A DNA stretch of 64,000 nt, from contig JAZQJV010000018.1 of the NCBI GenBank assembly GCA_045541795.1, forward strand, positions 118,236 to 182,235, in the 5' to 3' direction. The stretch comes from Patescibacteria group bacterium. GTDB lineage: Bacteria > Patescibacteriota > Microgenomatia > UBA1400 > PJMF01. The notes beneath the pieces were generated by a model. It searched no databases. It was given only the letters and a program-made list of their open reading frames with translations, and was not told where the DNA came from. Positions 1 through 35,684 of the stretch are shown piece after piece. How positions within the stretch are numbered: position 1 is the stretch's first letter; the number at the start of each line of letters is the position of its first letter. The translations under genes were made by a program, and so were the position numbers.

Positions 1-28
1 CTCAAATGTAGTGGCGGTAAACAACCCC

Positions 29-56
29 TTGACAAAACAAATATTTCTGGTATAAT
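29..56 (+). promoter_or_regulatory. sigma70-type promoter (TTGACA, 16-nt spacer, TGgTATAAT)
   Basis: TTGACA at 29-34, TG at 48-49, TATAAT at 51-56, read directly. Confidence 0.6.
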
Positions 57-62
57 CAGAGT

Positions 63-354
63 TGTTCTTTGATATTGATTGCCGCTGCCGATTGCATGGC
101 GGTTTGGCGATCCGATAAAGACAAAATCTGGTTTTGCAGGAGGTGGCGGCCAATGATTGTGCGTTTGATGACGACTATGATTACAGATTGGGCGAACATC
201 TAGCTCTCAAAAGAAGTGGGACGACAGATAGGAAAAATGCGCTTTTGGGCAGACTGATGGGCTCTACACTGTCAGTCTAGGAAGCAAAGCTGTACCATTG
301 CAAATTCGGAAATAAGGTTCAATTAGCCCCGGAAATAATCCCGGGGCTTTTTTT
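63..354 (+). ncRNA. candidate orphan transcript (unclassified ncRNA, or carrier of a 16-codon sORF at 153-203)
   Basis: Bracketed by the 29-56 promoter and the 325-354 terminator. The track lists no ORF here. It contains internal hairpins and an AGGAGG-ATG sORF. No family recognised. Confidence 0.3.
325..354 (+). terminator. intrinsic terminator
   Basis: 8-bp stem agccccgg/ccggggct, 7-nt loop, followed by a T7 run. Confidence 0.75.
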
Positions 355-388
355 ACACAGATACAGGCAGGTAAAACACACAGGTTAA

Positions 389-565
389 GTGGGTAAAGAA
401 TTATCTAGTAATCGCACTGAACACGTAATTTATTTGCTTGACGAGCCAACCACTGGTTTGCATTTTGAGGATGTACAGCGATTGCTTTCGATTTTAAGTT
501 CGCTGGTAGGACAAAACTCCAAGTCATGGACAGGTAAGTTTTTGGTCACTGAATTGGCGCGTTAG
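389..565 (+). pseudogene. uvrA: uvrA 3' relic (second ABC domain Walker-B region joined to the extreme C-terminus; most of the gene is missing)
   Basis: Translation is [58 protein letters not shown]. It matches the UvrA pattern ..[23 protein letters not shown]...LL..L..L.. and then the C-terminal S.TG.FL tail. The IEHNLDVIK...GPEGG segment is absent and an in-frame stop lies just upstream at 386-388. Confidence 0.7.
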
Positions 566-600
566 TCGCAGAGAGTAATGTTTAGTTTTTGTGATGAATT

Positions 601-622
601 ACCCCGACCTTACGGTCGGGGT
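601..622 (+). terminator. GC hairpin after the uvrA relic (possible terminator, weak U tract)
   Basis: accccgacc / ggtcggggt stem with a ttac loop. Confidence 0.35.
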
Positions 623-834
623 TATGGACAAATGTGATATGAATTATTTTGAACAATTATGTCTACTCAAAATTATAGTGACTACGCCCAGATTAACCTG
701 ATAACACCTATTGAATATGATCACTATTCAATTAGTTTGTTTAGGTTTTATCAATGTGAAAATTAATAAGTTGCCCAGCACGAGTTTGTTATAATCGGCT
801 TTAGGTTAATAATTTGTCTGGTCACCAGGCATAA

Positions 835-1374
835 GTGCCAACATTATTAACTGGAGGTTATATCACTTTTGCCTGGAAATCCATATGCGACCATCATGAC
901 TATAATCGTATTGATTTGCATGCCTTTAGACTGGACAATAGCTTTACTTATACAGTTTCACTTACAGTCAATTATGACAAGGTTAATCTTTTAGAGAAAC
1001 TGCCAGTCTTACCAAAGTTCGAACAATTATTTATAACTTTCAATCAACCACAAATGCTACTGACCGATACTTTATTGTGGCACGCTGATCGTTGTTACCA
1101 ATTTCAGGGACAAACATTCAATTATGTCCTCATCAGAGCACTGGTAAAAGCCAATGGAGAAATTCCCTGGAACGATCAGCTGCTGCTGATGTATGATCCT
1201 GGTCCTCTTCATCTAAGTAGCTCGAAAATAGATGATAGAAGTACTTTAATTTGTCGTGCTATAGATGACCTTAACTTGGAGCTCAAACAAAAACTTAAAA
1301 TGAATTTTACACCGATACACAGACGTAAAAATAAATTTATTAAATTTGATAAACAAATTATACTATCGACATAG
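835..1374 (+). CDS. hypothetical protein (possible OmpR/CadC-like winged-helix at the C-terminus)
   Basis: 179-aa ORF with a GTG start in the AT-rich region. The stretch ..RSTLICRAIDDLNLELKQKL...FIKF weakly resembles a Trans_reg_C recognition helix and wing. Confidence 0.4.
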   Translation: MPTLLTGGYITFAWKSICDHHDYNRIDLHAFRLDNSFTYTVSLTVNYDKVNLLEKLPVLPKFEQLFITFNQPQMLLTDTLLWHADRCYQFQGQTFNYVLIRALVKANGEIPWNDQLLLMYDPGPLHLSSSKIDDRSTLICRAIDDLNLELKQKLKMNFTPIHRRKNKFIKFDKQIILST

Positions 1375-1469
1375 ACTCACTTAGCTGGAGTTACTCTAGG
1401 CTCAGTTTTTGCTTCTCTGGTAGTTTAATATCCCTGTCTAGAAATTAGTCGAGGCTATTAAACGACCGC

Positions 1470-1679
1470 ATGAGACAGAGCACAATAGTAGTACCAGCTC
1501 GCACCGACATCGGGAAAAAATATCGTACTAGCTACGACCCTATATCAGAGCAGGACGTTCACGATTTTATTGCTGCCGTTAAGGCAGATAGTGGATGGGT
1601 ATTGAAGTTTGATGAGGCAAAACAAACAGCCAATGATTTAATAGAGTTGGCCAAATTAGTCAATAAATATCAGGAATAA
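1470..1679 (+). CDS. hypothetical small protein
   Basis: 69-aa ORF; no recognisable motif. Confidence 0.35.
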   Translation: MRQSTIVVPARTDIGKKYRTSYDPISEQDVHDFIAAVKADSGWVLKFDEAKQTANDLIELAKLVNKYQE

Positions 1680-1735
1680 CTGTCTTAAAAGTCTTGCATT
1701 TTTAATCAATTTGTGATATAAAGACCACATTAATT

Positions 1736-2824
1736 ATGACAAACACAAAAAAGATCCAGACAGTTACTAGTAACGATATGTCGATGTCTAATGATCAAGA
1801 GTATCGGGAATGGTTAGTCGACTTAAAAACAAGATATCAACATAGTCGCATTAAAGCATCTATAAAAATTAATTATGAGGTCATTTTTTATTACTGGTCT
1901 GTTGGTCGTGACATTGTGATTAAAAAAGCCGAATCAAAATGGGGTAGTGGTTTTTATGATAATTTGAGTCGCGATCTACGACGAGAATTACCTGGTATAC
2001 AGGGATTATCAAAAACAAATCTCAAATACATGAAGTACTTTTATGATCTTTTTCCAGATGTGTTTACTGATAAGTCAATTCGTCCACAAGTTGTGGACGA
2101 ATTGGAGCAAATACCTTGGGGACATATCCGATATATTATAGATAAGTGTCGCGGTGATCAACAAAAGGTGATATTTTTCATCAATAAGACCGTGGAAAAC
2201 AACTGGTCGAGAGCAATGCTGCTAAATTTCCTGGATACAGATCTTTACGAGAGGCAAGGGAAGGCGATTACGAATTTTACCAATAAGTTAGCTTCGCCTC
2301 AAGGAGAATTAGCTCAACAGCTTACCAAAGATCCTTACAGTTTTGACTTTCTTACTATGAGAGAAAACTATCAAGAAAAAGAGCTTAAGGATGCCCTGAT
2401 TGCTAATATTGAAAGATTTCTGCTGGAACTTGGCAAAGGTTTTGCTTATATGGGACGGGAATACCGCTTACAAATCGGTGAAACTGAAAAATTTATAGAT
2501 ATGCTCTTTTACAACACTGTCCTGCGTTGTTACGTGGTAGTAGAAGTCAAAGTGGAGAAATTTGAATCCGGACATTTAGGGCAATTGGGATTGTATGTGA
2601 CCGCGGTTAATCATCAGCTCAAAAACGAAACTGACAATCCCACTATCGGTCTGTTGATTTGCAAGAGCAAAGAGAATGTGGTGGCGAAATACTCGCTAGA
2701 AAGCATGGCGGTGCCGATCGGAATATCAGAATATGAGTTGCAAAAAATCTATCCCGCTGATTTCAAGAGTAGTTTGCCAACGATAGAGGAGATAGAGAAT
2801 GAGCTGGCTGATAATAACGATTAG
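1736..2824 (+). CDS. YhcG/DUF1016 family PD-(D/E)xK nuclease (paralog a)
   Basis: KAESKWGSGFYDNLSRDL, PWGHIRYI, FAYMGREYRLQIGE..FIDMLFYN..CYVVVEVK (D..E.K core), PTIGLLIC. A TTGCAT-17-TATAAA promoter lies upstream near 1693-1721. Confidence 0.85.
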   Translation: MTNTKKIQTVTSNDMSMSNDQEYREWLVDLKTRYQHSRIKASIKINYEVIFYYWSVGRDIVIKKAESKWGSGFYDNLSRDLRRELPGIQGLSKTNLKYMKYFYDLFPDVFTDKSIRPQVVDELEQIPWGHIRYIIDKCRGDQQKVIFFINKTVENNWSRAMLLNFLDTDLYERQGKAITNFTNKLASPQGELAQQLTKDPYSFDFLTMRENYQEKELKDALIANIERFLLELGKGFAYMGREYRLQIGETEKFIDMLFYNTVLRCYVVVEVKVEKFESGHLGQLGLYVTAVNHQLKNETDNPTIGLLICKSKENVVAKYSLESMAVPIGISEYELQKIYPADFKSSLPTIEEIENELADNND

Positions 2825-2845
2825 TAAAAATTAAGGTAATAACAT

Positions 2846-4273
2846 ATGTTCACACCTTTTGGCAAGAATCTCGACAATCTAAGTTTTGAAGACATTCAAA
2901 AATTTTGCGATAAAGGTGTTGCTGAAAATATTTATATTGATTACAAGAAAGAAATTAATCAGAAGAATGATCATCTTGCCAAAACTATTGCGTCCTTTGC
3001 TAATACACATGGCGGCTGGATAATAATTGGAGTAGAAGATAAGAATGATCGTCCAAACTCTCCATTTAACGGGATTGACTATACAGATGGAATAGAGTCT
3101 AGTATAACTACTATAATTGTTGACAATATTTATCCATATGTCGAAGTTACATCAAAGGTTATTGTCAACCATGATAATAAAAGAGCTTTTGTTGTAGTGT
3201 ATGTCCCAGAAAGTCATAAAACACCACATTGGATTAACAGCAGAAGGGATCTTTATATTAGAGCTAATACTAGAACAAAAACTGGCAGAGATGATATTAA
3301 GAATAAAAACGAAGACTTGGATATTTACGCCACTTCTGAAAATTGGGAATTCTTAAGAAATAAAAGGGAAAGGTCTCAACAACTGGCAATAGAATTGGAA
3401 ACAGCTTTAAATCGTTTGTTTCTATCATATAAAGATAAAGAAGAACGTTTGTGGTATCAAAATAACGAAAAAGTTAAAAATAATCCGTCGCTGCAAAGTA
3501 TAATATCTGAAGATATGGATACACTCGACTGTGCAGATCCAAGTATCACAACAATTAAAAATAGGCGAGAGTTCAGAAGCGAATGTTATCATGATAACAT
3601 TAGTATTATTGTCCAGCCAGTTTTCCCATCATACGCTATTTCTTCACCGCGTGATTTGAGAGAACACTATTCGTCTAACAGCGGTGCAAACCTCACTAAC
3701 GTTGGTTCACTTGACGAAAACTACAAACTTGATTATTTTCAAAACGGGATAGTAACTTTTTTTACTCCCGACAATAAGACAGGCAACCATTGCGCATTTT
3801 TTGCTCAAGACATCTTTGGTTCGTGCATGGTAAAACACAAGATAGTTCAACACAATCGAAAGAAGATTGATAACTACCAGGGTTATGAAGTGCCGCCAAA
3901 TAGTAACATTATTGACTTTGAATACTTGATAGTTTATATTGAACAATTTTTAAAATATGCATCAGTTTTTTATAAACAAATTGGTTATTTAGGCGAACTT
4001 AGACTTAAGGTGGTCATGAATGTGCCAGAATGGTCATATATGATAATTCATGATTCAACCAAGAATTTTCCGCTTGCATATAGTAATTCTGATAAATATT
4101 TTCTTTGGGAGAAAGTTTTTATTAATGCTGATTTTGTTAACGATCAAGAACGAAATAAAATACTAAATACTATGTATGAAAGTATTGGATTCTTTTTTAA
4201 TTGTGACGAAATTCCTAAACAAATAATTAATAATCTGAGAAAGAATCCAAATAATGCTAATGAGCAACTTTAA
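2846..4273 (+). CDS. AlbA_2 (Schlafen-like, putative DNA-binding) domain protein with an uncharacterised ~330-aa C-terminal region
   Basis: The N-terminus reads ENIYIDYKKEIN...LAKTIASFANTHGGWIIIGVED...FVVVYVPES...YIRANTRT, which fits the AlbA_2 pattern. It starts 21 nt after the DUF1016a stop. Confidence 0.75.
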   Translation: MFTPFGKNLDNLSFEDIQKFCDKGVAENIYIDYKKEINQKNDHLAKTIASFANTHGGWIIIGVEDKNDRPNSPFNGIDYTDGIESSITTIIVDNIYPYVEVTSKVIVNHDNKRAFVVVYVPESHKTPHWINSRRDLYIRANTRTKTGRDDIKNKNEDLDIYATSENWEFLRNKRERSQQLAIELETALNRLFLSYKDKEERLWYQNNEKVKNNPSLQSIISEDMDTLDCADPSITTIKNRREFRSECYHDNISIIVQPVFPSYAISSPRDLREHYSSNSGANLTNVGSLDENYKLDYFQNGIVTFFTPDNKTGNHCAFFAQDIFGSCMVKHKIVQHNRKKIDNYQGYEVPPNSNIIDFEYLIVYIEQFLKYASVFYKQIGYLGELRLKVVMNVPEWSYMIIHDSTKNFPLAYSNSDKYFLWEKVFINADFVNDQERNKILNTMYESIGFFFNCDEIPKQIINNLRKNPNNANEQL

Positions 4274-4297
4274 CTTCCCGTCTCAAAAACTCCCCAA

Positions 4298-4364
4298 TCA
4301 TGCTATAATCAACCTCAAGTAACTGGGTTCGGATTTCCCGCCAGAAACCACCAAAAAATAGGAT
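4298..4364 (+). repeat. promoter-plus-leader repeat, copy 1 (TGcTATAAT 4301-4309; conserved 29-nt core 4324-4352)
   Basis: The core tgggtTcggatttcccgccagaaaccacc differs at one base from the copy at 6859-6887. Both cores lie 14 nt after their -10 box. No ORF follows this copy. Confidence 0.7.
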
Positions 4365-4423
4365 ATTGAAGTACGCAAATTATATCCATATAAAAACGAT
4401 ATTTTAAGCAAATTATTTGGTAT

Positions 4424-5590
4424 TTAATCATTATTGTTAATGTTTAAAAGTAATTGTAATCTTTTCATGATTTCATCGAATGTTATTATTATATTTCTGG
4501 AAACACTCTTTCTGAATAAGTTGAACGATCTTTCTTGTTCTTCAAGAAGTCCTGATTTGTTACCGATAATAATTATTCCTAATGGATCAAGAGCATTCAA
4601 GCGGTTATCTTCATAATCTTTTCCAATAAGAGTTGAAAAATTATCACTCGCAATTCTAATTTGATTTTCTAGTTGAACTATCGCACCACTCAATTCGTCA
4701 GACATGGAATAGCACACATTCTCTCCAACGGCATCTGAATTGCCTCTATATTGATGTCCAATAATGGCACTTTGCGGTGTTTTAATTTCAATAACTGCAA
4801 AGCTTTTATTTGAAAGATTTTGCAAAAGAAAATCAGCGGCGACTCCTCCTTGGCCGTTTCTTCCACGACTGTTCTTTCCTCCTAGATATGTTTCGCCATT
4901 CAAATAACAGACTGGACAATAAAACAAACTCTCAAAAATCCACTGATTTTCTGTGAAGAATGCTTGCCAAAAGTTTTCTTTTTGGTTATTATTCATATTT
5001 TTCGCAATTGTATTAATTGCATTCTGCAATTTGGCTAGTAATATAATATTTTCTAATACTCTGATGTTTCCTTTTCCTAAATCTCTTAACTTGGTAATAA
5101 CCATTTCCTTATTTTTAATATCGCCAATTTGCAATAAAACACTTTCTATATTTCCTTCTCCAATAGATATTGTTGTGGTTCCAAATTTAATACCGTTTTC
5201 ATTTAGAGTCTCTCTAATTAACGGTAAATGCTCAAAGAGATTTTTCATGGCTTCACCATCAAGGTTGAGATCATAAAATTCTCCTTTTCTTAACTTAGTA
5301 ACAGATAGGCCTTTATAACTTTGCCAGTTGTCATTAATTCCTTTTCTTTCCCATCTGAAACCTCCTCGCAATGGTTTGTCAGTTTGAGATGGGTCTACCC
5401 ACTTTGGGTAAAAAAGTAATCTTGTGCTTTCAGTTTCTTTTAGTATAATTGGGGAAATATCAGCGGTTTTATTGGAAGTAGATTTTATTGTTATATCTTT
5501 TGATTCTTTCTGTTTGTCTGTAAATCCCTTGCGAGGTAGCGTGAAATCTATTTCTCCTGAAATATTGCTAAAATCATATTTTGGAGTCAT
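4424..5590 (-). CDS. sduA: Shedu-like DUF4263 (SduA-type) PD-(D/E)xK nuclease
   Basis: The C-terminal half reads NFWQAFFTENQWIFESLF...GVAADFLLQN...FAVIEIKTP...SDELSGAIVQLENQI, which fits the DUF4263 pattern at ~390 aa. The track start is a TTG at 5602. The ATG at 5590 preceded by GAAAG is more likely. Confidence 0.7.
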   Translation of the reverse strand: MTPKYDFSNISGEIDFTLPRKGFTDKQKESKDITIKSTSNKTADISPIILKETESTRLLFYPKWVDPSQTDKPLRGGFRWERKGINDNWQSYKGLSVTKLRKGEFYDLNLDGEAMKNLFEHLPLIRETLNENGIKFGTTTISIGEGNIESVLLQIGDIKNKEMVITKLRDLGKGNIRVLENIILLAKLQNAINTIAKNMNNNQKENFWQAFFTENQWIFESLFYCPVCYLNGETYLGGKNSRGRNGQGGVAADFLLQNLSNKSFAVIEIKTPQSAIIGHQYRGNSDAVGENVCYSMSDELSGAIVQLENQIRIASDNFSTLIGKDYEDNRLNALDPLGIIIIGNKSGLLEEQERSFNLFRKSVSRNIIITFDEIMKRLQLLLNINNND

Positions 5591-5608
5591 GGTGGCTTTC
5601 AATCAAAA

Positions 5609-6736
5609 TTACCTATTTGCTTCTAGCAACTTTTTCTCTATCTCCTCTATCGTCGGCATCGTTCCTTCCACCTTTTGCGGATACAACTTCTCCAGTTCGT
5701 ACTCCGAAATTCCCAATGGTTGATTGCTAGATTCCAAAGCATACTGAGCGATTAAATTATCTTTTTGCTTGCAAATGAGCAAACCGATAGTCGGATTATC
5801 TCGTCCTTCTTTTTGTAAAAGGTGATTGCAAGAAACCACGTAACCGCCAAGTTGCCCCAAATCGGCAAAATCAAATTCGCCAATTTTCACTTCAACCACA
5901 ACGTAACAAGACAACTGTAAATTATAGAAAAGCAAATCAATAAATTTTTCTTTCTCGCCGATTTGCAGTCGATACTCTTTTCCCACATACGCGAAGCCCG
6001 TGCCAAGTTCTAATAAAAATTTGGTTATATTTTCTAGCAGGGCATCTTTTAATTTACGTTCATTGTATTTATCGGTAATACCAGTAAAAGCAAAATTATA
6101 TGGATCTTTTGTTAATTCCTGAGCTAAATCGCTAGTAACATTGGGTAAGGTTTTGCCAAAATTCGTCAATGCTTTTCCTCGTCGATCATAAAGATCGGTT
6201 TCAATAAAATTGAGTAGCATATCTCGGCTCCAACCATTTTCTATTGTTTGGTGAACAAAAAAGAGTGCTTTTTGTGGTTCTGTTTTGAATTTATCAATTA
6301 ACAGCTTATGATGGCCCCACGGAACAGAAAAAATGTCGCTTTCAATTTTCTCAATGACTTGCTGAGTAATTACATTACTTTCTATTTGCTCCCCAACTTG
6401 GGGAGCAATTTCGAAATATTGATGGTAAAGTATATAAAAGTTTTTCATGTACAACAAATTTGTCGGCGAAAAACACGTTGCGTCAGGATTGAGAGTTTTA
6501 AGGTCTCGGCTGAGATTTTTCATGAAACCACTGCTCCATTTACTTTCGGCTTTCATTACCACAATGTCTCTGCCCAAATCATAGTAAAAACGAAGCATTT
6601 CCCGATTAACTTTTACTGCTGCTCTAACTTGGCTCAAGCGATAACGAGAAGAAAGCTTCCCAATCCACGAGGCATAATTTTCATCTAGAATTGTTAGTGA
6701 CTGAACTTGTTTTGCAACCTGTTTTTTCTCTGTCAT
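5609..6736 (-). CDS. YhcG/DUF1016 family PD-(D/E)xK nuclease (paralog b)
   Basis: KAESKWSSGFMKNLSRDL, PWGHHKLL, FAYVGKEYRLQIGE..FIDLLFYN..CYVVVEVK, PTIGLLIC. It is colinear with 1736-2824 over its whole length. Confidence 0.85.
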   Translation of the reverse strand: MTEKKQVAKQVQSLTILDENYASWIGKLSSRYRLSQVRAAVKVNREMLRFYYDLGRDIVVMKAESKWSSGFMKNLSRDLKTLNPDATCFSPTNLLYMKNFYILYHQYFEIAPQVGEQIESNVITQQVIEKIESDIFSVPWGHHKLLIDKFKTEPQKALFFVHQTIENGWSRDMLLNFIETDLYDRRGKALTNFGKTLPNVTSDLAQELTKDPYNFAFTGITDKYNERKLKDALLENITKFLLELGTGFAYVGKEYRLQIGEKEKFIDLLFYNLQLSCYVVVEVKIGEFDFADLGQLGGYVVSCNHLLQKEGRDNPTIGLLICKQKDNLIAQYALESSNQPLGISEYELEKLYPQKVEGTMPTIEEIEKKLLEANR

Positions 6737-6815
6737 AGTGGCTATTACTTATAGCACAATAACGCTATTTTGTCAATACTGATAATTAATTATTATTGGC
6801 ATTTATTTTCAATTC

Positions 6816-6903
6816 TTGCAAAAACAACTTCATACTGTTATAATCAGTTTCAAATAATTGGGTGCGGATTTCCCGCCAGAAACCACCCCAAAAAGATGGG
6901 ATT
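6816..6903 (+). promoter_or_regulatory. promoter-plus-leader repeat, copy 2 (TTGCAA 6816-6821, 17-nt spacer, TGtTATAAT 6836-6844; core 6859-6887)
   Basis: Consensus-like promoter followed by the conserved core tgggtGcggatttcccgccagaaaccacc. Possible helix GGGTG 6860-6864 / CACCC 6884-6888 and inner hairpin GCGG-atttc-CCGC. It precedes the zinc-ribbon/TM2 gene. Confidence 0.6.
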
Positions 6904-6922
6904 ACTGCGATGAAAGTGAAAC

Positions 6923-7256
6923 ATGACAGATGAAAAAACAAAATACTGTAAACATTGCGGTTCGCTTATTGATGTAGAATTGCATAATATGCCCGAAGTG
7001 TGGCAAGCAGGTCGAACAAGTAAAAGCCGAGCTTCCAAATGTAGTGATCAATAACAATAACACCAATTCGAATATAAACTATGCTGGTGCTGTGGGGAGC
7101 GGGCGGCCTATCAATAAGTGGATAGCTTTGGGTTTATGTCTTTTTCTGGGCATATTCGGTGCTCATAAGTTTTATGAAGGAAAGATTGGCATGGGAATAT
7201 TGTATTTGTTTACATTTGGTTTGTTTAGTCTTGGTTGGTTTTTAGATATTTTTTAA
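6923..7256 (+). pseudogene. zinc-ribbon + TM2 domain protein, interrupted by a +1 frameshift
   Basis: Frame A from ATG 6923 gives MTDEKTKYCKHCGSLIDVE... Frame B gives ..CIICPKCGKQVEQVKAELPNVV.. and continues into the 7044-7256 ORF with the TM2 motif (INKWIALGLCLFLGIFGAHKFYEGK). The two CxxC halves of the ribbon therefore sit in different frames, and a TAG at 6975-6977 blocks frame B upstream. Confidence 0.6.
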
Positions 7257-7355
7257 TCCTAACAAAGCCTAATCCTTATTACATATAATACTTTTACATT
7301 TGCGTTTTTATTATAACTACGTTATAATAACACAAACTTTAAGGAAAATATAAAC

Positions 7356-8429
7356 ATGAAAAATCATCGAAAATTCCATCCTCGCATTATTGTCAATATC
7401 ATCTGTCTTTTTTCATTGGCATTATCTCACATTATTTTTTCGCTACCGATTAAAATAATTGATACAGTTTATGCCGTCGAGCGTGAAACTGTCACTGTGA
7501 GCCGTGTGATTGATGGTGATACAATCGTTTTGAATGATGGGCGAAAGGTTAGATATATTGGAATTGATACACCAGAAACAGTTCATCCAACAAAAAATGT
7601 GCAGTGTTTTGGGAAACAAGCCAGTAACAAAAATAGAGAATTAGTCCTTGGTAAAACTGTGGAACTGGAAAAAGATATCAGTGAAACTGATCGCTATGGA
7701 CGTTTACTCAGATATGTATATTTGGATGGCGTCATGATTAATCATAAATTAGTCGCTGAAGGTTATGCCACAACCGTAACCTATCCTCCAGATGTTAAGT
7801 ATAAAGAAGAATTCTCCAAAGCTCAGGCGCAGGCAAGACAAGCAAGACTTGGGCTATGGGGTAATGAATGCAACGAAAGCAGCAGCACTCACGCATCCTC
7901 AAACAACAATGCTAGCTCAAATACAAATAAAATGGATTCGTCAAGCACATCGTCATCATCTCAAAACAACAAAACTCAAAATGACCATGAAGGCAACCAA
8001 GCTTCTACTCAACCAACTAACACTAGCGCACAAAAATGTCCATCAAATTGTAGTGAGGCCAAAAGCATGGGAATGGTTAACATTACACCGTCGCATCCAT
8101 GCTGGCAAGAAAAATTTGATGGCGATAAAGATGGCGTGGGTTGTGAAAGTGACAACCGGTCTACCAATACAAAAACAACTAACAAATCCAATAATGTCAA
8201 TAAACAGACCAGTGCTACGCCGGCACCCACGCCAGTGCCAAGTCGCGCCCCAACGCCAGAACCAACCCCACCGCCTACGTCAGTGCCAGCTCCAGCTGCG
8301 CCAACCCAATCTTGTCCAAATAACTGTACCCAAGCAAAGGCAATGGGAATGGCCAATATGACACCTTCTCATCCTTGTTGGCAATCTAAATTTGACCGAG
8401 ATAAAGACGGTATTGGTTGCGAAGACTAG
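7356..8429 (+). CDS. secreted/anchored thermonuclease (SNase family) with two C-terminal Excalibur Ca-binding domains
   Basis: VIDGDTIVL..GRKVRYIGIDTPE...RYGRLLRYVY...LGLWG, plus two copies of CP.NC..AK.MGM.N.TPSHPCWQ.KFD.DKDG.GCE separated by a PT-rich linker. It has an N-terminal hydrophobic anchor. Confidence 0.85.
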   Translation: MKNHRKFHPRIIVNIICLFSLALSHIIFSLPIKIIDTVYAVERETVTVSRVIDGDTIVLNDGRKVRYIGIDTPETVHPTKNVQCFGKQASNKNRELVLGKTVELEKDISETDRYGRLLRYVYLDGVMINHKLVAEGYATTVTYPPDVKYKEEFSKAQAQARQARLGLWGNECNESSSTHASSNNNASSNTNKMDSSSTSSSSQNNKTQNDHEGNQASTQPTNTSAQKCPSNCSEAKSMGMVNITPSHPCWQEKFDGDKDGVGCESDNRSTNTKTTNKSNNVNKQTSATPAPTPVPSRAPTPEPTPPPTSVPAPAAPTQSCPNNCTQAKAMGMANMTPSHPCWQSKFDRDKDGIGCED

Positions 8430-8438
8430 AAAGTAAAA

Positions 8439-9119
8439 ATGTCACAAAAAGATAATAGCAAACATTCTTGCAGAATAATCATGGCCGCATTGCTAGTGCT
8501 TCTAAGCATTGCATTGCTGCATAAATCTTTTTTTGCTGCCGCCTTCACTATCTGCTACGCATATCTCATCTCGCCACTATCAATTCAATTGGTAAGTAAA
8601 ATATGTAAGAAAGAAAATGAGAAATGGCTATATTCAACCATGACTTTTATTTTTGCTCTTTGCTGGATGACCACAATTCAAACTGGTCAGCCACAAATGG
8701 ATAATGTGTTAACGCAAAATAGTGAAAAAAACGCATCGCTAGAGAATGCGTCAACACAAAATAATGAAAAAATCGCTTCACTAGAAAAAGAGCTCCAATC
8801 AGTTAAGAACGAAAGAGATGAAATTCAAGCAAACAACCAAAAAAGAGCCATTTCAGCTGCCAAATCATATTTGGAATACAGTCCAATGTCGAGCCGAGAG
8901 TTGATTAAGCAACTCGAGTTAGAAGAATTTTCTCATGAAGACGCAGCATACGGTGTAGAGCATGCTGATATCAATTGGAACGATCAAGCATCACGGTCAG
9001 CAGTCCTCTTTATTGAGTTTGCTAATCCGTCAACCGAAGAATTAAAAAAACAACTTGAGTACGAAGGTTTCACAAGCAACGAAATAAAATTCGCCATTGA
9101 GCATAATAGTAATGGGTAA
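8439..9119 (+). CDS. membrane protein with two Ltp-type (host cell surface-exposed lipoprotein) repeats
   Basis: AISAAKSYLEYSPMSSRELIKQLELEEFSHEDAAYGVEH and ASRSAVLFIEFANPSTEELKKQLEYEGFTSNEIKFAIEH fit the Ltp repeat pattern. It also has N-terminal TM segments and a short coiled-coil repeat. Confidence 0.7.
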   Translation: MSQKDNSKHSCRIIMAALLVLLSIALLHKSFFAAAFTICYAYLISPLSIQLVSKICKKENEKWLYSTMTFIFALCWMTTIQTGQPQMDNVLTQNSEKNASLENASTQNNEKIASLEKELQSVKNERDEIQANNQKRAISAAKSYLEYSPMSSRELIKQLELEEFSHEDAAYGVEHADINWNDQASRSAVLFIEFANPSTEELKKQLEYEGFTSNEIKFAIEHNSNG

Positions 9120-23956: not shown

Positions 23957-26050
23957 TTATGGCTTATTTTTGGTTTTGACCGCTGATTTGCTTTTTAGCG
24001 CAAATAGTAAACTGAGCACGCACTCCTTAATGCTTGGCCGATGATAGGCACGAGCACACACATTTTTTTTATCAAATGTCAGCCGTCGAAACGTAAAATG
24101 ACGTTCGCGTTCCAATAAAAAACGTAAAATTTTCTCGCTGGCCACTCCGGCGGCCACATATGCAGTACTGCCGAGCTGCGGCATCGCGACGCCAAAAGGA
24201 GTAATTTTTTGTCCTCGCACATACAAACCCATTTCATCACGCACGGCATTTTCTAGTCCCACCATCCGTGCTGCCACTTGCAAAAAATCACCTGAGAGCA
24301 TAGCTTGGAGTTTATCGTCACCAAGCCCAAACACCAGCGACTCACCACGCTTAGCGGCATCACTATTTTGGAAGGTAAGCTGAGCGATAGAGCCTACGTC
24401 AGATACCGCCACCACCGCCACGTTTTCTTTCCGGGCAATTTCGAGAATCGCCAATTTATCTTTGAGCGTATCTATCGCTTCTACCACTACGTCCACTTTT
24501 TGACCGGTAATGCCACCGGTCAGCCAGACAGTAAGGTTTTCTCGGTGAAAGCCATCGGCAGATAAATAAATGATTTGCGTGGGGTCTTGACGATGCAGAC
24601 GTCTGGCAAAATCCACACTTTTGGTGTCATGACTGGCGGCATCCAAAACGTCATAATTGGTGCGGTTAAAATTGGTAACATTTGGTCCTTTGGGATCACC
24701 GATACTTAGGTATCCGATCCGGCCGTCGCGGATCAAGTTTTCTGCCGTGGCGCTAGCCACACTTGCTCCGGCCACCAGTACGTGGGCCCGTGCAAAAATC
24801 AAACGAGCCTCCAGCCAAGAAATCGAGTAGGCACGGTCTTGTAGCAGCTGACCTGGGCTGGAGTTGAGTGCCAATTTCCAGGCCGGCAAAGGAGGGAATT
24901 GTACAACTGCTTCCAGTTGTCCGGTACGCGTAAAATAAAAGCCAAAAAACCCGTAATTCATTTTGTCGGTCAAATGCTCCCAAGCACTAAATTGCTCCGC
25001 TAAATATCGTGCCACCGGACCTTTGTCTGTAGAGAGGTTCTCTTTGAGTTTAGCGTAAGTACTCTCGACTAAAGTATAAAACTTGCCGCCTACATTTTCA
25101 AAAGTTTGCCCGGCAAAATTGACACTTAAATGCTGATCGCTCAGATCAAAAATCCGCGCGCTGGCTACTTCTTCCCATGACATCAAAATCGGACGTCCGG
25201 GATAAAAAGTGGCTGGATGAGCGAGTTTGTCTCGTACAAAGCTCAAATTCCATTCGTTGGTAATCAGCTCCTGCCAGATGTACTCGTCGCCAGCTGACGG
25301 CATATTAGTTGTATTTTCGCCTTGATTTTCGGTTTTATTTATACGGTCACTGCGTAAAGCAATTTCGTATGGTCTGCAGTTGTGGAAGTATCGCGGCCAA
25401 TGTGCCAGCATAAATCTCGTCTGCTCGTTGTCTGCAAGTTTGGCCTGCGCCATTTCCCGAGCCTCAATCCCGCACCGATCCATAAATGCTTTCACATTGG
25501 TGCTCATCGTGCAAGCCAACCATGATTTGGGCATATCTAAGTCTGCTGTTAAAGTCTGCACGAGACCATGTAAAATCTGGATTCTTAGCTCGTCATCATG
25601 AGTGAGGTCAAAATAAGGATGAAAGGCCAGTCGTTCAAATTCATAAGGTACTTGCCCGGTTTTTTGGTACGGCCAGCCGTCAGGCATTGTAAAAAACTGG
25701 AAGAGTTCAAGCCTCTCGTGCACTAGTCGTAGTGTCCCCAAAATTACACCTTGGCTGCAAGCAACTGCCGTTTTGATGTGGGCGTCACTGCCTGTTTCGT
25801 TAAAAGTCATGCGTTTGGGATCACTATTTGTCGCATAGCGGCCATTGTAAGCGACGCTTATAAGCGGTTGCAATAAAATGTAATCTGCGGGTTGGGCCAA
25901 ACGGTAAGAAATTCCCGCTTGCGCAAACGAGTTTTTTAAATTGCCCAAATTGCTAATTAAAGCCGCCGCATCCGCTAAAACTGCCTCGTCACTAGTGTGC
26001 TGTTTTAGCTTATTTAGATATAGTTGAGTGGTAGTTGGTGCAAAATTCAT
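23957..26050 (-). CDS. fusion protein: N-terminal FeeM/OlsB/LuxI-like N-acyltransferase-like domain + central unknown region + C-terminal ThiF/E1-like domain
   Basis: The N-terminus has DAHIKTAVACSQGVILGTLRLV...YEFERLAFHP, an acyl-N-acyltransferase-like pattern. The C-terminus has HVLVAGASVASATAENLIRDGRIGYLSIGDPKGPNVTNFNRT...VVEAIDTLKDKLAILEIARKENVAVVAVSDVG, a ThiF-type Rossmann pattern with a degenerate glycine loop. The start is set at the ATG at 26050 (MNFAPTTT). Confidence 0.55.
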   Translation of the reverse strand: MNFAPTTTQLYLNKLKQHTSDEAVLADAAALISNLGNLKNSFAQAGISYRLAQPADYILLQPLISVAYNGRYATNSDPKRMTFNETGSDAHIKTAVACSQGVILGTLRLVHERLELFQFFTMPDGWPYQKTGQVPYEFERLAFHPYFDLTHDDELRIQILHGLVQTLTADLDMPKSWLACTMSTNVKAFMDRCGIEAREMAQAKLADNEQTRFMLAHWPRYFHNCRPYEIALRSDRINKTENQGENTTNMPSAGDEYIWQELITNEWNLSFVRDKLAHPATFYPGRPILMSWEEVASARIFDLSDQHLSVNFAGQTFENVGGKFYTLVESTYAKLKENLSTDKGPVARYLAEQFSAWEHLTDKMNYGFFGFYFTRTGQLEAVVQFPPLPAWKLALNSSPGQLLQDRAYSISWLEARLIFARAHVLVAGASVASATAENLIRDGRIGYLSIGDPKGPNVTNFNRTNYDVLDAASHDTKSVDFARRLHRQDPTQIIYLSADGFHRENLTVWLTGGITGQKVDVVVEAIDTLKDKLAILEIARKENVAVVAVSDVGSIAQLTFQNSDAAKRGESLVFGLGDDKLQAMLSGDFLQVAARMVGLENAVRDEMGLYVRGQKITPFGVAMPQLGSTAYVAAGVASEKILRFLLERERHFTFRRLTFDKKNVCARAYHRPSIKECVLSLLFALKSKSAVKTKNKP

Positions 26051-26126
26051 ATTTGACTTTCTGTAAAATTTGTAGTACAACATTAACAATCATAAATTAG
26101 TGATGATTATAAACGAGGAACGTTAT

Positions 26127-27791
26127 ATGTCAAGGACTAAATATGAATTTGAATTATATCAGGCTGAGCCGATGGCCGACCTGAGAGAAGTTATTAATTA
26201 TGCCGCCCAAAGTTACGCCGATAAACCGGCGTTTATTTTTCAGCAGCACCTTGAGGATGAGCCAGAAAAGATCACTTTTGCTCAGTATCGGCAAGATATT
26301 AAAGAAGTCGCCTGCGGGTTGATTAGCGCGCTCCGGATTGACGTTAGTCGTCGTGACAGCAAAAAAATCGCACTGCTTGCGCCTAATAGTTACTGGTGGT
26401 CAGTCTGCTACCTGGCCGTCACTACCATCGGTCATGTCATCGTGCCTCTAGATCCTAATTTGCCTAGTGATGATTTACTATCATTTATGAAGCGCGCGGG
26501 AGTAAGTTCGGTCATTTTCACGCCTACTATCAATGATAAAATTGCCAGCCTTAAAAATTCTTTGGTCAAAATGAAGCATTACATCGCCATGGGCGAAGCC
26601 AGTGAGGCCACAATTACACTAGAAAAAGTGCGCGCTGCCGGCATCAAGCAACTGCAAAAAAATCCGGGTCTTTATGATGAGATCACTATTTTCCCAGATA
26701 GCCTGTCGACTTTGCTTTTTACCTCTGGTACCACTTCTACACCCAAAGCAGTAATGCTCACTCACAAAAACCTCGCCTCAGAGTTGGCTGGTATGCGCCA
26801 GTTTAACGACTTCCAAAACGAACGCCTACTTTCGGTACTTCCACTTTACCACTCGTATGAGTTTATGGTAGGGTTACTTTTCCCGATCTACTGCGGCTGC
26901 ACTATTTACTATTTGCCGGGCGGCTTGCGCGCTTTCACCGATCAACTCGAGCGTGTTCGGCCGACAGTGATGGTCTTAGTACCTTTGGTGATCGAGGAAG
27001 CCTACCGCCGGGTACGAGCAAGTTTGGATGATCCCGAAGATCACGAGGCCTTGGCGGCAGCCCTAAAAAATTACTACGGCGGACAACTGACGAGAATCAT
27101 TGATGGCGGCGCGCCTATCAATAGTGACATCGCCGAGATTTACGACCGCTCCGGCATCAAGCTCCTGCAAGGCTACGGCATCACGGAATGCTCACCAGTA
27201 GTTTCCATGAATCCAGACCGCTATTACAAACCACGCAGTATCGGTATGCCGTTGCCCAATATCCGGGTGAAGATTTTTGAGCCCGATAGTGAGGGAGTGG
27301 GGGAAGTCATCGTGCGCGGGCTCACAGTCATGCTTGGCTACTATAAAGATGAGCGCAAAACTGATCAAGCCATCATTGACAATTGGTTGCACACGGGTGA
27401 TTATGGCCGCTTCGATGAAGATGGTTTTCTCTATGTGGTGGGGCGCAAAAAAAACGTTATCATCGGTAAAAACGCCAAGAAAATCTACCCGGAAGAAGTA
27501 GAATATCATCTCACCTGCTGCCCGGAAATTCGTGAGGCGATGGTTTACGGTCAGGCAGTAGATGATGATACCAAAGTCGCGGCTTTACTGGTGATTGACG
27601 AGGATAATTTCCGCCGTTACCACAGCGAACTCGGCTCTAAGCCGACACCTGAACAAATCCAAAAAGTGATGGCGGGAGTAATTGAAGCTGTCAACCAGGC
27701 GAATGTCAAATACAAGCGCATCTATAATTGGCAGATTGTCACCGCCTTACCGCGGACAGCAACAGGTAAAATAAAAAGGAATCAAGTTTGA
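26127..27791 (+). CDS. AMP-dependent synthetase/ligase (long-chain acyl-CoA/acyl-AMP ligase, FadD-like)
   Basis: TSGTTSTPKAVMLTHKNL, QGYGITE, TGDYG..DEDGFLYVVGRKK and a terminal GKIKR. The ATG at 26127 follows GAGGA. Confidence 0.85.
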   Translation: MSRTKYEFELYQAEPMADLREVINYAAQSYADKPAFIFQQHLEDEPEKITFAQYRQDIKEVACGLISALRIDVSRRDSKKIALLAPNSYWWSVCYLAVTTIGHVIVPLDPNLPSDDLLSFMKRAGVSSVIFTPTINDKIASLKNSLVKMKHYIAMGEASEATITLEKVRAAGIKQLQKNPGLYDEITIFPDSLSTLLFTSGTTSTPKAVMLTHKNLASELAGMRQFNDFQNERLLSVLPLYHSYEFMVGLLFPIYCGCTIYYLPGGLRAFTDQLERVRPTVMVLVPLVIEEAYRRVRASLDDPEDHEALAAALKNYYGGQLTRIIDGGAPINSDIAEIYDRSGIKLLQGYGITECSPVVSMNPDRYYKPRSIGMPLPNIRVKIFEPDSEGVGEVIVRGLTVMLGYYKDERKTDQAIIDNWLHTGDYGRFDEDGFLYVVGRKKNVIIGKNAKKIYPEEVEYHLTCCPEIREAMVYGQAVDDDTKVAALLVIDEDNFRRYHSELGSKPTPEQIQKVMAGVIEAVNQANVKYKRIYNWQIVTALPRTATGKIKRNQV

Positions 27792-27847
27792 GCTTGCATT
27801 TTGCGCGCAAACGTTATATAATATTAAAAAGTTGTCTGAAAGGGGTT

Positions 27848-28243
27848 ATGTCAGATAATGCAAAAAAAATCTTACTCGTAGAAGATGAAACAGAACTGCG
27901 AGAGCTATACAAAATCCTCTTACAAGGGGAGAATTATCAGGTAGATGCTGTCGGTGACGGCAAAGCCGGACTGGAAGCAATGAGTCGCGGCGGCTATGAT
28001 TTGGTCCTTTTGGATATCATGCTGCCATTCATTGACGGACTAGATGTGCTTGAGCGCAATGCTAAATCGGATATTGCTACCAAGCAGCCCAATAAATCCG
28101 TGGTTTTGCTTACCAATTTGGCTCAAGACCAGACCATTGCCAAGGGGCTGGAGTACGGCGTGCGTGGTTACATGATCAAAAGTGACTACAACCCAGAACA
28201 GCTATTGGAAGCGGTCGCTGATTTCATCGCCAATCCGGCTTAG
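27848..28243 (+). CDS. stand-alone response-regulator receiver domain (CheY-like)
   Basis: KKILLVEDE...DLVLLDIMLPFIDGLDVL...LLTNL....GYMIK. No output domain, and no histidine kinase in the window. Confidence 0.8.
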   Translation: MSDNAKKILLVEDETELRELYKILLQGENYQVDAVGDGKAGLEAMSRGGYDLVLLDIMLPFIDGLDVLERNAKSDIATKQPNKSVVLLTNLAQDQTIAKGLEYGVRGYMIKSDYNPEQLLEAVADFIANPA

Positions 28244-28655: not shown

Positions 28656-28684
28656 ATTATATACCCATTTGATCATTTTGTCAA
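28656..28684 (-). promoter_or_regulatory. consensus promoter of the pilin-like gene
   Basis: On the minus strand: TTGACA (28684-28679), 17-nt spacer, TATAAT (28661-28656). Confidence 0.6.
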
Positions 28685-34472: not shown

Positions 34473-35684
34473 ATGAACGGGAAAATAGTGCCGGTGTTTT
34501 TGGCGGCAGTTTTACTTCTCCCCTTATGGAGGGGAGATAGGCATACCACAGGTACAGCCAGAGGGGAGGTGCAAGCAGCCAGTAGTGCCACCACCAAAAA
34601 ACTCAAAGACGTGGCGCTTGGTGAGGTTATCCAAATTGGTGTTACTAAGTACGTCAAGATCGCTGCCAATAGCTATCAGGCGGTAAAGCCGTATACCTGT
34701 GCTGACCCAGTACTCACTTATGCCGGTGCTAGCAAAAGTTTCACTTATACGGGGAACTATCAGACATTTACGGCATATGCTGGGTGCCAGTACCAGGTGG
34801 AGCTGTGGGGTGCACAGGGCAATGACAACGGTTCAGTACTTGGCGGCAGAGGCAGTTACACTGCCGGATTATTTACGCCAGACGGCACAAGCTCACTTTA
34901 CGTTTATGTCGGCCAACATCAACAGTCAGTGCTAGCAGCTTCCTTTAATTGCGGTTCTACCGGCCCCTTAAATCACGGCGGCGATGCTGTTGGCTACGGG
35001 GGCGGCGGTGCTACAGATATTCGCACCGTAAGCGGAACTTGGGATAATGAAAACTCACTGCGTTCCCGGATCATTGTCGCCGCCGGCGGTGGTGGCAGTA
35101 AAATCTGGGGCGGTTGTAATTCAGTCGGATCTCAAGAAGGGATTTTTGCTGGCGGTATTAGCGGCTATACTGGTCCAGGCTCTGGTTACGCACCCAATGC
35201 TTGCGTCGCCGGGACTGGCGGTACTCAAGTGGCTGGTGGCAGTGCCTCTACGTGTACTGGTAATGGTGGCACCAGAGCGAGTGCGGGCAGCTTTGGTAAA
35301 GGCGGCAATCCTGGCAGTACATATAGCGCCGGTGGTGGCGGCGGCTGGTATGGTGGGGGCGGCGGCACTGCTAGTCACTGTTATATTGCCTGCGGCGGTT
35401 CTGGTTCCTCTTACATCTCCGGCCACACTGGCTGCGTCGGCGTCACTTCACTAAGCGACACTACTCCCAAATCCGGCTGCACCACCGGTACGACTAATAA
35501 TGCCTGTTCGCTTAGCCCTACTGGTCTGAGCTTCACTGACACCGTGATGATTGACGGTGCTGGTTATTCCTGGACAAATGTAAAAGGATCACTTCAACAA
35601 ATGCCCAATCCTGCCGGCGGTTACTACGCGAGCGGCGTGGGTCATACCGGCAATGGTGCCGCCCGTATCACCCGCCTTAATTAA
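34473..35684 (+). CDS. secreted glycine-rich domain protein (Gly_rich family, ALK/LTK GRD-like)
   Basis: FTYTGNYQTFTAYAGCQYQVELWGAQG...GGRGSYTAG...LYVYVGQ...GYGGGGATDIRT...RIIVAAGGGGS...GGGGGWYGGGGG. It has an N-terminal hydrophobic signal or anchor. Confidence 0.7.
   Translation: MNGKIVPVFLAAVLLLPLWRGDRHTTGTARGEVQAASSATTKKLKDVALGEVIQIGVTKYVKIAANSYQAVKPYTCADPVLTYAGASKSFTYTGNYQTFTAYAGCQYQVELWGAQGNDNGSVLGGRGSYTAGLFTPDGTSSLYVYVGQHQQSVLAASFNCGSTGPLNHGGDAVGYGGGGATDIRTVSGTWDNENSLRSRIIVAAGGGGSKIWGGCNSVGSQEGIFAGGISGYTGPGSGYAPNACVAGTGGTQVAGGSASTCTGNGGTRASAGSFGKGGNPGSTYSAGGGGGWYGGGGGTASHCYIACGGSGSSYISGHTGCVGVTSLSDTTPKSGCTTGTTNNACSLSPTGLSFTDTVMIDGAGYSWTNVKGSLQQMPNPAGGYYASGVGHTGNGAARITRLN

Follow-up and report, generated by a model that had tools for sequence, protein, structure and literature searches.

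Organization of the locus

The 64-kb window, by which we mean the whole stretch of DNA that was analyzed, carries a three-gene cassette at positions 23957–28243. The initial annotation had described a 697-aa fusion protein, a ligase transcribed divergently 76 bp away and a receiver domain, and all three open reading frames were recovered. The fusion gene occupies positions 23957–26050 of the minus strand, from an ATG at 26050 to a stop codon at 23957–23959. Its mechanical open reading frame continues upstream to a TTG at 26089; because a perfect TTGACA-16-TATAAT element lies at 26133–26106 of the minus strand, transcription of the gene likely starts downstream of this TTG. The element is a candidate sigma-70-type promoter (26106–26133, minus strand), proposed from its consensus match only (12 of 12 positions), and it extends into the first codons of the ligase.

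The adenylate-forming acyl ligase (26127–27791, plus strand) encodes 554 residues, and its GAGGA ribosome-binding site lies 8 nt upstream; 76 bp separate its start codon from that of the fusion gene. A stand-alone CheY-like receiver of 131 residues (27848–28243, plus strand) follows. Intergenic gaps within the cassette range from 16 to 76 bp.

Architecture of the fusion protein

Residues 1–235 of the fusion protein (25346–26050, minus strand, as for all its parts) form a FeeM/LuxI-like GNAT domain that is predicted to act as an N-acyl amino acid synthase. A poorly conserved linker at the fusion junction (residues 236–254; 25289–25345) leads into a middle domain (residues 255–~410; 24821–25288), and the C-terminal residues 411–697 (23960–24820) make up an E1/ThiF-like domain, a predicted ATP-dependent cyclase.

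The joining of GNAT and E1 domains in one polypeptide is genuine. It occurs in four lineages (P0001–P0003 and P0007) at 98 to 46% identity, and in the remaining lineages the two domains are encoded by separate genes that overlap by 14–20 nt. The linker is variable and gapped between the fused proteins, and it coincides with the stop/start overlap of the split versions. Throughout the close family, GNAT and E1 are adjacent or fused. The family as a whole is rare: a set of 1.84 billion representative proteins contains 76 of its clusters.

The separate middle part, first put at about 200 aa, is present at ~160–190 aa. It precedes the E1 domain in every case within the family, and together the two are more strongly conserved than any other part of the synthase (mean column identity 64%, vs 50% for the GNAT domain). 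Such a conserved middle domain could change the chemistry.

The N-terminal domain resembles FeeM

The motifs that had suggested a FeeM/LuxI-like acyltransferase, ILGTLRLV (residues 103–110) and YEFERLAFHP (residues 136–145), lie in the N-terminal domain, and its predicted structure backs this assignment: the fold is a GNAT with FeeM as the best solved match, ranked above the acyl-homoserine lactone (AHL) synthases. By sequence, the Pfam FeeM model (PF21926) gives E = 0.015 and 15.5 bits over the full-length protein, or 18.1 bits for the domain alone, against a gathering threshold of 27; it matches 3 of 62 distant relatives, with a best E of 1.9e-6. Profile comparison of the GNAT family by hhalign gave no signal against the FeeM domain from N. 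vulgaris, nor against a Rhodococcus neighbor gene that is one candidate TrzA-type enzyme.

N-acyl oxazolones are made by an N-acyl amino acid synthase, a ThiF-like cyclase and a nitroreductase-type oxidase (bioRxiv 10.1101/2020.06.11.147165; PMC10404671; PMC12856293). Here too, a FeeM/LuxI-like GNAT fold is fused with or lies beside the predicted cyclase.

The same fold might belong to a CoA-dependent, LuxI-like enzyme that, as in RpaI and BjaI, would combine S-adenosylmethionine with the ligase's acyl-CoA, with the kinase and receiver described below acting as the receptor of the resulting AHL. We consider this most improbable. None of the 77 family members scanned matches the Pfam autoinducer-synthase model, and FeeM and T_hemolysin are the models that recur; FeeM outranks the AHL synthases in the structural matches; the obligatory ThiF-like partner would be left without a role; and distant relatives are accompanied by an oxidase of the oxazolone type.

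The C-terminal domain is related to the cyclase TrzS

An unambiguous E1 fold in the predicted structure of the C-terminal part likewise agrees with the original ThiF/E1 call. The window protein reaches 26.3 bits against the Pfam ThiF model (PF00899), whose gathering threshold is 28.1, and precomputed PF00899 matches are present in all 13 homologs. The FeeM and ThiF assignments thus both fall short of threshold by sequence, but both are confirmed by predicted structure.

Motifs of the C-terminal part include VAGASVAS (residues 426–433), IGDPKGPNVTNFNRT (residues 450–464) and EAIDTLKDK (residues 524–532). The first of these, a glycine loop initially described as degenerate, does not reflect decay: it reads G-A-SVAS here, G-L-SVGS in a bona fide Rv1355c-family protein and G-G-SVG in the 490-aa relatives. 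Like that of the oxazolone clusters, this ThiF-like domain has an intact predicted adenylation site, with no variation in the family at the ribose-binding Asp, the Arg of NxNR, a Lys and the Mg-binding Asp.

The domain is homologous to TrzS-type cyclases. Its top NCBIfam match is the Rv1355c family (41 bits; equivalog cutoff 476), with TcdA second (35.5 bits). Rv1355c is also the top match for the E1 partners at loci L014, L016 and L010, and relatives score 59–78 bits. Comparison of the window E1 domain with an annotated Rv1355c-family protein gives an hhalign value of 96.6%, and the two have in common the G.SV[GA]S loop, NxNR and E(A/E)xD. Rv1355c is TrzS, whose cyclase activity requires the Asp of the E(A/E)xD class, as seen with the D217A variant (PMC12856293).

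Among PDB sequences, the best match is TcdA (E = 6e-6). MccB and PaaA score no better than MoeB or Uba5, and the alignment is confined to the E1 core. This bears on a RiPP-like reading, in which the E1-like domain would adenylate a small ribosomal peptide at its C-terminus as MccB and PaaA do, the middle domain would recognize the peptide, and the GNAT domain would acylate it or provide immunity. We regard such a system as very unlikely, since the nearest sequence family is that of a small-molecule cyclase, the gaps in the cassette are too small for a conserved peptide gene, and no conserved transporter or peptidase is found in the cassette.

A dedicated acyl ligase

The call of a canonical acyl-AMP/CoA ligase was correct. 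The protein belongs to the ANL superfamily, with an AMP-binding domain (PF00501; 234 bits, E = 3e-69) and a C-terminal PF23562 domain (26.3 bits), both above threshold, and the motifs TSGTTSTPK, YGITE and the GK of TATGKIKR can be read in its sequence. Its best NCBIfam match is the long-chain-fatty-acid–CoA ligase PRK06187 (273 bits, under the cutoff of that model). Judged from its sequence, the enzyme is most probably an acyl-CoA synthetase.

The coupling of ligase and fusion protein that had been suspected holds across genomes: the ligase occurs in all nine close loci, adjacent to the pair in eight and 3.3 kb away in L007. Its orthologs form a dedicated clade of 17 clusters restricted to contigs that bear GNAT/E1 genes, and the next homologs are at most 38% identical. 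Dependence on a dedicated ligase suggests a scavenged acyl group and a product that carries information about the host or environment.

Oxidase genes accompany distant relatives

Neither HMM search nor tblastn found a nitroreductase-superfamily flavin oxidase in the 64-kb window or in L001–L009. Distant GNAT homologs adjoin a ThiF-like gene and a nitroreductase, with the oxidase present near the GNAT relatives of L012, L014 and L015. These nitroreductases score up to 342 bits against the Rv1355c model, in its C-terminal half, and a ThiF-like gene plus an Rv1355c-type nitroreductase beside the distant GNATs amounts to the published oxazolone cluster architecture. With no flavin oxidase found in close-family DNA, the ring would stay saturated, and the pathway may end in something other than an oxazolone.

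This raises a simpler reading, in which the cassette simply makes an N-acyl amino acid or an aminolipid, membrane-bound or secreted, and the ThiF-like domain is an inactive scaffold or carries out an unrelated adenylation. FeeM-type enzymes make N-acyl amino acids by themselves (PMC12479983), and a glycine loop that departs from GxGxxG, a ThiF score under the Pfam threshold and the lack of a detected oxidase would all fit. However, the same loop occurs in a protein of the Rv1355c family, to which the active cyclase TrzS belongs, the predicted ATP-site residues do not vary, the middle and E1 domains are better conserved than the GNAT domain, and close-family GNAT and E1 are never found apart. 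We judge this simpler reading unlikely.

A receiver and, in relatives, a 7TM histidine kinase belong to the cassette

The receiver matches PF00072 (Response_reg; 74.6 bits, E = 9e-21), with an acidic pocket (E12/D13), a phospho-acceptor Asp (D56), T89 and K111 readable in its sequence. It is better conserved than any other gene of the cassette, at 70–87% identity across loci vs 35–59% for the GNAT domain, and wherever the contig reaches far enough it lies 3′ of the ligase.

As initially stated, the 64-kb window contains no detectable histidine kinase. The description of the receiver as an orphan applies to the window's lineage only, whereas relatives carry a 7TM histidine kinase within the same cassette. 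This kinase is found in five of the nine close loci and in four distant loci, either directly after the E1 gene (L001, L007, L008, L023, L024, L010 and L016) or one gene from it (L012 and L014). Presumably the lineage of the window has lost this gene, or the gene has moved.

It is possible, though less likely than not, that the two-component genes are mere regulators or neighbors, with the kinase sensing something unrelated such as envelope state, the receiver acting elsewhere and the lipid being structural or defensive. The kinase is missing from four of nine close loci, the window included, the receiver lacks an output domain, a dedicated kinase is absent from the known oxazolone loci, and antimicrobial activity has been reported for related N-acyl tyrosines (PMC12856293). 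Yet, across two tiers that have diverged deeply, the GNAT–E1 pair keeps the kinase and/or receiver with it as the flanking genes change, and no gene of the block is better conserved than the receiver.

Proposed pathway

We propose, with a probability of about 0.6, that the cassette encodes a variant N-acyl oxazolone pathway, leading from a fatty acid through acyl-CoA and an N-acyl amino acid to ATP-dependent cyclization. The ligase would convert an exogenous carboxylic, probably fatty, acid into acyl-CoA, from which the FeeM-like GNAT domain would move the acyl group onto an amino acid's amino group. The ThiF-like domain would then adenylate the N-acyl amino acid's carboxylate with ATP, allowing the amide oxygen to close the ring to a 5(4H)-oxazolone. 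TrzS yields a saturated cyclized intermediate if its oxidase is disabled or O2 is limiting (PMC12856293). A saturated oxazolone, reactive and short-lived, may be the final product here or may acylate a further nucleophile. The original suggestion of an acylated product is supported to this extent: an N-acylated small molecule built from an exogenous activated acid is what the predicted activities point to.

Because the receiver, and in relatives the 7TM kinase, belong to the cassette, the product or its precursor acid is probably sensed as a signal. More speculatively, the five-gene block of 7TM kinase, ThiF-like cyclase, GNAT synthase, ligase and receiver may be a self-contained communication circuit of small-genome, probably episymbiotic, bacteria. 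A fatty acid from the host or environment would become an oxazolone derived from an N-acyl amino acid, or a derivative, and this labile lipid would be the ligand of the block's own 7TM kinase, and the receiver would relay the signal to behavior, for example pilus-driven attachment or motility. We hold this proposal tentatively and think it rather unlikely to be correct in full; if true, it would assign the oxazolone pathway its first physiological role and define a new class of bacterial autoinducer together with its receptor.

Comparison with known systems

The initial annotation knew of no characterized system with this set of domains, but the N-acyl oxazolone pathway, represented by OxzAB, TyzACB and TrzAS, has the combination. 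TrzAS (Rv1356c–Rv1355c) directs N-acyl tryptazolone synthesis in M. tuberculosis, M. smegmatis and Rhodococcus jostii (PMC12856293). The likeness lies in the E1 domain, whose best NCBIfam match is the TrzS family and which has the loop and active-site motifs in common with it. In TrzS, however, the ThiF domain is fused to the flavin oxidase, whereas here it is fused to the synthase, preceded by an extra middle domain of ~160 aa, and accompanied by a receiver and a dedicated ligase, to which relatives add a kinase. The organism also differs, being a small-genome bacterium from gut-type metagenomes instead of an actinobacterium.

TyzACB of M. tuberculosis (Rv2336/Rv2337c/Rv2338c) makes C12:0-tyrazolone (PMC10404671), and OxzAB is known from Pseudoalteromonas rubra (bioRxiv 10.1101/2020.06.11.147165). 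Both follow the same logic of three activities, with acyl-CoA as donor and ATP-dependent cyclization, and the closest structures to the TyzA model were reported to be FeeM and an AHL synthase (PMC10404671), as for the GNAT domain here. They draw on the cell's own acyl-CoA pool, use an O2-dependent desaturase and have no sensor linked to the known loci, while the present cassette brings its own ligase and shows no such desaturase.

A FeeM–ThiF fusion already exists in an annotated genome. WP_011176612.1, a 989-aa 'ThiF family adenylyltransferase' (NCBIfam PRK14852) of plasmid pDV of Nitratidesulfovibrio vulgaris Hildenborough, has FeeM and then ThiF in one polypeptide, in the order seen here. 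It differs in being a triple fusion with an added nitroreductase domain, in its canonical FeeM (E = 5e-44) and ThiF (E = 6e-49) matches, and in its neighbors, which are PEP-CTERM proteins and include neither a ligase nor two-component genes; no similarity between it and the CPR-type GNAT profile could be detected. Further afield, the tRNA t6A dehydratase TcdA is also E1-like and uses ATP activation to cyclodehydrate an N-carbamoyl amino acid moiety.

In gene arrangement, the cassette recalls LuxM/LuxN, CqsA/CqsS and Agr, in which the gene for a small-molecule synthase has a polytopic histidine kinase and a response regulator encoded next to it. The components of those systems are not homologous to the cassette, where signaling is purely inferred and the kinase is missing from the window's lineage.

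Only in 2021–2025 were the enzymes of N-acyl oxazolone synthesis characterized; the authors concerned call the physiological role of these lipids a major unresolved question and point to their likeness to AHLs (PMC12856293). Set against the known oxazolone systems, the present one has a fused synthase and cyclase, no oxidase found, a ligase from a dedicated clade, and a receiver that is always present where the contig extends, with the kinase in part of the loci. It would extend the pathway to small-genome bacteria from gut-type metagenomes. By linking synthase and cyclase, over deeply diverged lineages, with a receiver and a 7TM histidine kinase dedicated to them, it also offers a testable receptor candidate for the signaling idea.

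Gene layout of the cassette and its surroundings

The three open reading frames described in the initial annotation were recovered unchanged: a fusion gene on the minus strand (23957-26050) encoding 697 aa from the ATG at 26050, a ligase gene on the plus strand (26127-27791) encoding 554 aa with a GAGGA ribosome-binding site 8 nt 5′ of its ATG, and a receiver gene on the plus strand (27848-28243) encoding 131 aa. Back-to-back promoter-like sites lie inside the 76-bp divergent spacer between the fusion gene and the ligase. A perfect TTGACA-16-TATAAT consensus match at 26133-26106 on the minus strand favors translation of the fusion gene from the ATG at 26050 over initiation at an upstream TTG, and a tRNA-Glu gene is found directly 3′ of the fusion gene. 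The ligase and the receiver gave clear Pfam matches (AMP-binding, E=3e-69, and E=9e-21, respectively), and all matches to the fusion protein were sub-threshold (ThiF, 26.3 bits with a cutoff of 28.1; FeeM, E=0.015; T_hemolysin, E=0.07).

The gene content of the window includes a T4SS-type pilin, SpoIID, an ATP-dependent DNA ligase and densely packed small genes, features that point to a probable CPR/Patescibacteria origin; no rRNA was found within its 64 kb. The pilin gene (PF18895; 28251-28631, minus strand) comes immediately beyond the receiver gene and is preceded by a perfect consensus promoter of its own (28656-28684, minus strand). Pilin genes of the same family are also located near the cassette in L001 and L004 (L numbers denote DNA stretches bearing relatives of the cassette genes). 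The window (34473-35684, plus strand) and, close to the cassette, related contigs (L002:17039-17335 and L003:16449-16745) also encode proteins bearing a glycine-rich domain of the ALK/LTK type (PF12810), which is unusual for bacteria. Positions 1-8500 of the window are low in GC (0.34-0.38 versus ~0.47 elsewhere) and look like a defense island, with defense-type genes for two YhcG/DUF1016 PDDEXK nucleases (1736-2824, plus strand; 5609-6736, minus strand), a Schlafen/AlbA_2 protein (2846-4273, plus strand), Shedu SduA (4424-5602, minus strand) and a secreted SNase-Excalibur nuclease (7356-8429, plus strand).

Domains of the fusion protein

Structure models of the fusion domains were built from family alignments. 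The N-terminal domain (235 aa, pLDDT 85.7) is a GNAT domain whose predicted model has FeeM and an AHL synthase as its closest structures. AclA (9egb) was also among the top structural matches, and a literature search for it returned nothing usable. When PDB sequences were searched with the N-domain profile, the sole match was a chance-level StAR-domain protein (E=0.74). The model of the C-terminal 443 aa (pLDDT 75) contains an unambiguous E1/ThiF core, matching Uba5 (18.7), MoeB (18.6), MccB and PaaA (both 17.2) and TcdA (14.7) over only ~220-235 of its residues, and Foldseek concurs. Between the two lies a middle domain of ~160 aa (fusion residues 255 to ~410) that is confidently predicted in large part and for which neither Pfam nor the PDB sequences contain a relative. 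With a FeeM-like GNAT and an E1/ThiF fold in the models, and ligase and receiver identified by Pfam, the domain anatomy and gene layout in the initial annotation were right.

Across the family the AGASVAS loop is invariant, as are D452, N461/R463, K477 and D527, the E1-type ribose, phosphate and Mg ligands. When the E1 domain was aligned by hhalign (probability 96.6%) to an annotated Rv1355c-family protein encoded on a Rhodococcus plasmid, VAGASVAS fell opposite VGLSVGS, NFNRT opposite NLNRL, and EAID opposite EECD. The unusual glycine loop, initially described as degenerate, is therefore a signature common to the Rv1355c family. Placement of the window ThiF domain in the Rv1355c subfamily is no more than suggestive, since the Rv1355c model gives 41 bits for it and TcdA 35.5 bits. 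A ThiS/MoaD-type sulfur-carrier role was rejected because Ubl and rhodanese genes are absent and no cysteine is invariant in the family alignment.

The fusion protein is rare, with 13 relatives among 5.8 billion clusters, and a search of 1.84 billion representatives with the N-domain profile found just 76 clusters (E<=0.001). GNAT and E1 are fused in four lineages; in all other close relatives the N-domain is a separate gene of 218-249 aa that overlaps the start of the gene for the middle and E1 domains by 14-20 nt. This classic fusion/fission pattern is evidence that both parts work jointly. In L005 (1734-3809; JAFRKU010000050.1, goat jejunum MAG RGIG2560) the fused gene is broken near its 3′ end, leaving the last ~90 E1 residues in a separate ORF (3537-3809), possibly as a pseudogene or through an assembly error.

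A dedicated ligase and linked two-component genes

Nine independent close loci could be compared: the window, L001, L002 (identical to L003 and L006), L004, L005, L007, L008, L023 and L024. All nine carry the ligase, adjacent and divergent in eight and 3.3 kb distant in L007, and the receiver lies 3′ of it in every close locus whose contig reaches that far; the flanking genes vary. The ligase search showed a sharp break, with 17 clusters at >=43% identity and the next matches, generic Clostridia-type acyl-CoA synthetases, at <=38%. At least 11 of the 17 clusters agree with previously found GNAT/E1 clusters in the length of their longest contig, and the two most divergent orthologs looked up both sit inside complete cassettes. 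Together, these results mark the ligase as a component dedicated to the cassette rather than a housekeeping neighbor. The ~3.3 kb that part the ligase-receiver pair from the GNAT gene in L007 (4615-7955), the sole cassette break seen, carry a KsgA-type rRNA adenine dimethylase, a Ham1-family NTPase and a small ORF.

The receiver is the best-conserved cassette gene (70-87% identity versus 35-59% for the GNAT). Of the nine close loci, five (L001, L007, L008, L023 and L024) encode a histidine kinase of ~720 aa directly 3′ of the E1 gene; its sensor region, where seen by Pfam, was called as HisKA_7TM (weakly in L001 and L024), alongside HisKA and HATPase_c. The 64-kb window itself has no histidine kinase, as initially noted.

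Distant homologs

About 60 distant GNAT homologs have a common motif set (AYNxRY, LGTxR, LExFxLF, WPH, GExGRFxxHP and YWxP..QPxVY), and a metagenome scan with the alignment of a distant-tier subgroup yielded three loci. In L012, L013 and L014 the GNAT is followed by a 490-aa ThiF-like gene, a nitroreductase gene encoded in the opposite direction and a 7TM kinase gene; L014 additionally has a receiver and an HTH regulator. L016 has the order GNAT, ThiF, 7TM kinase, in L010 a 7TM kinase comes after a GNAT-ThiF fusion of 738 aa, and in L015 the GNAT is preceded by genes for a nitroreductase and a SnoaL protein. The homolog P0049 (L017:7001-7705) is unaccompanied by ThiF, ligase or kinase, which shows that members of the GNAT family can occur apart from the cyclase. 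P0049 is encoded on a contig of 183 kb, where its neighbors are TIR-domain and GGDEF/EAL genes.

For every E1 partner, including that of the window, the best NCBIfam match is the N-terminal part of the ‘Rv1355c family’ model, and the distant-tier nitroreductases match its C-terminal half (up to 342 bits) as well as an Acg-family FMN oxidoreductase model. The middle domain is common to the window protein and the 490-aa E1 proteins (hhalign 99.1%, 348 columns), which indicates that the middle and E1 domains form a unit independent of the oxidase.

An annotated precedent for a FeeM-ThiF fusion, resembling the GNAT-E1 fusion of the window, is WP_011176612.1 (989 aa; L021:1647-4613, NC_005863.1, plasmid pDV of Nitratidesulfovibrio vulgaris Hildenborough), annotated merely as ‘ThiF family adenylyltransferase’. 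It consists of FeeM (E=5e-44), ThiF (E=6e-49) and nitroreductase domains in that order, and an entire oxazolone-type pathway would thus lie in one polypeptide. N. vulgaris Hildenborough is a strict anaerobe, and the nitroreductase domain is odd there because the known oxidase step needs O2. The gene is flanked by PEP-CTERM proteins.

Proposed chemistry and a possible signaling role

From the folds, motifs and gene linkage observed for the cassette, we infer that the ligase would activate an exogenous acid, the GNAT domain would N-acylate an amino acid, and the ThiF-like domain would adenylate the new carboxylate, leading to oxazolone ring closure. The initial guess of an acylated small molecule would be on target. 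HMM and tblastn searches of the window and the close-family stretches L001-L009 found no nitroreductase-type oxidase, and two relatives originate from goat jejunum assemblies; the product to be expected would therefore be an oxazolone that is saturated and reactive. Such a compound could be the labile end of the pathway or, alternatively, serve in activated form to acylate a further nucleophile. Oxazolones are prone to hydrolysis and alcoholysis (PMC12856293).

In both tiers the kinase and receiver genes remain linked to the GNAT-E1 pair, whereas the rest of the neighborhood changes. The physiological role of N-acyl oxazolones is an open question according to the authors who likened them to acyl-homoserine lactones (PMC12856293). 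Because of this linkage, the conservation of the receiver, and the open role and likeness, a synthase-plus-sensor circuit is plausible, though less likely than not. The association could equally be regulatory, and the kinase is missing from the window’s lineage.

Comparison with N-acyl oxazolone pathways

The initial remark that no characterized system was known is out of date: OxzA/OxzB of Pseudoalteromonas rubra (bioRxiv 10.1101/2020.06.11.147165), TyzA/TyzB/TyzC of M. tuberculosis (PMC10404671) and the TrzA/TrzS enzyme pair, in which TrzS is Rv1355c (PMC12856293), have been described. In these pathways a ThiF-like enzyme performs an ATP-dependent cyclization and a nitroreductase-superfamily flavin oxidase desaturates the cyclized product with O2 to give the N-acyl oxazolone (bioRxiv 10.1101/2020.06.11.147165; PMC10404671; PMC12856293). 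A conserved Asp in the ThiF adenylation motif is needed for cyclase activity, and with the oxidase disabled or under O2 limitation TrzS releases the saturated cyclized intermediate (PMC12856293). The closest structures to the TyzA model are FeeM and an AHL synthase (PMC10404671), a likeness to the window-family GNAT.

The GNAT profiles gave no hhalign signal against the N. vulgaris FeeM domain, for which the MAFFT alignment (14% identity) is too low for motif comparison, or against a 252-aa Rhodococcus gene adjoining the Rv1355c-family gene, which may not be a TrzA homolog. In L019 (866-5068; Rhodococcus qingshengii plasmid pLP1) this divergent neighbor has no Pfam match and no similarity to the GNAT family. 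The Rv1355c-family (TrzS-type) gene of L019 adjoins a GGDEF-domain gene, echoing the published setting of trzAS in M. tuberculosis beside cyclic-di-GMP turnover genes.

The cassette would work like an oxazolone cluster and has two of the three defining components, but not the oxidase. It differs from the known clusters in lacking that enzyme in the window and close-family stretches, in the fusion of synthase and cyclase, in its extra middle domain, in its dedicated ligase and in its linkage to two-component signaling genes.
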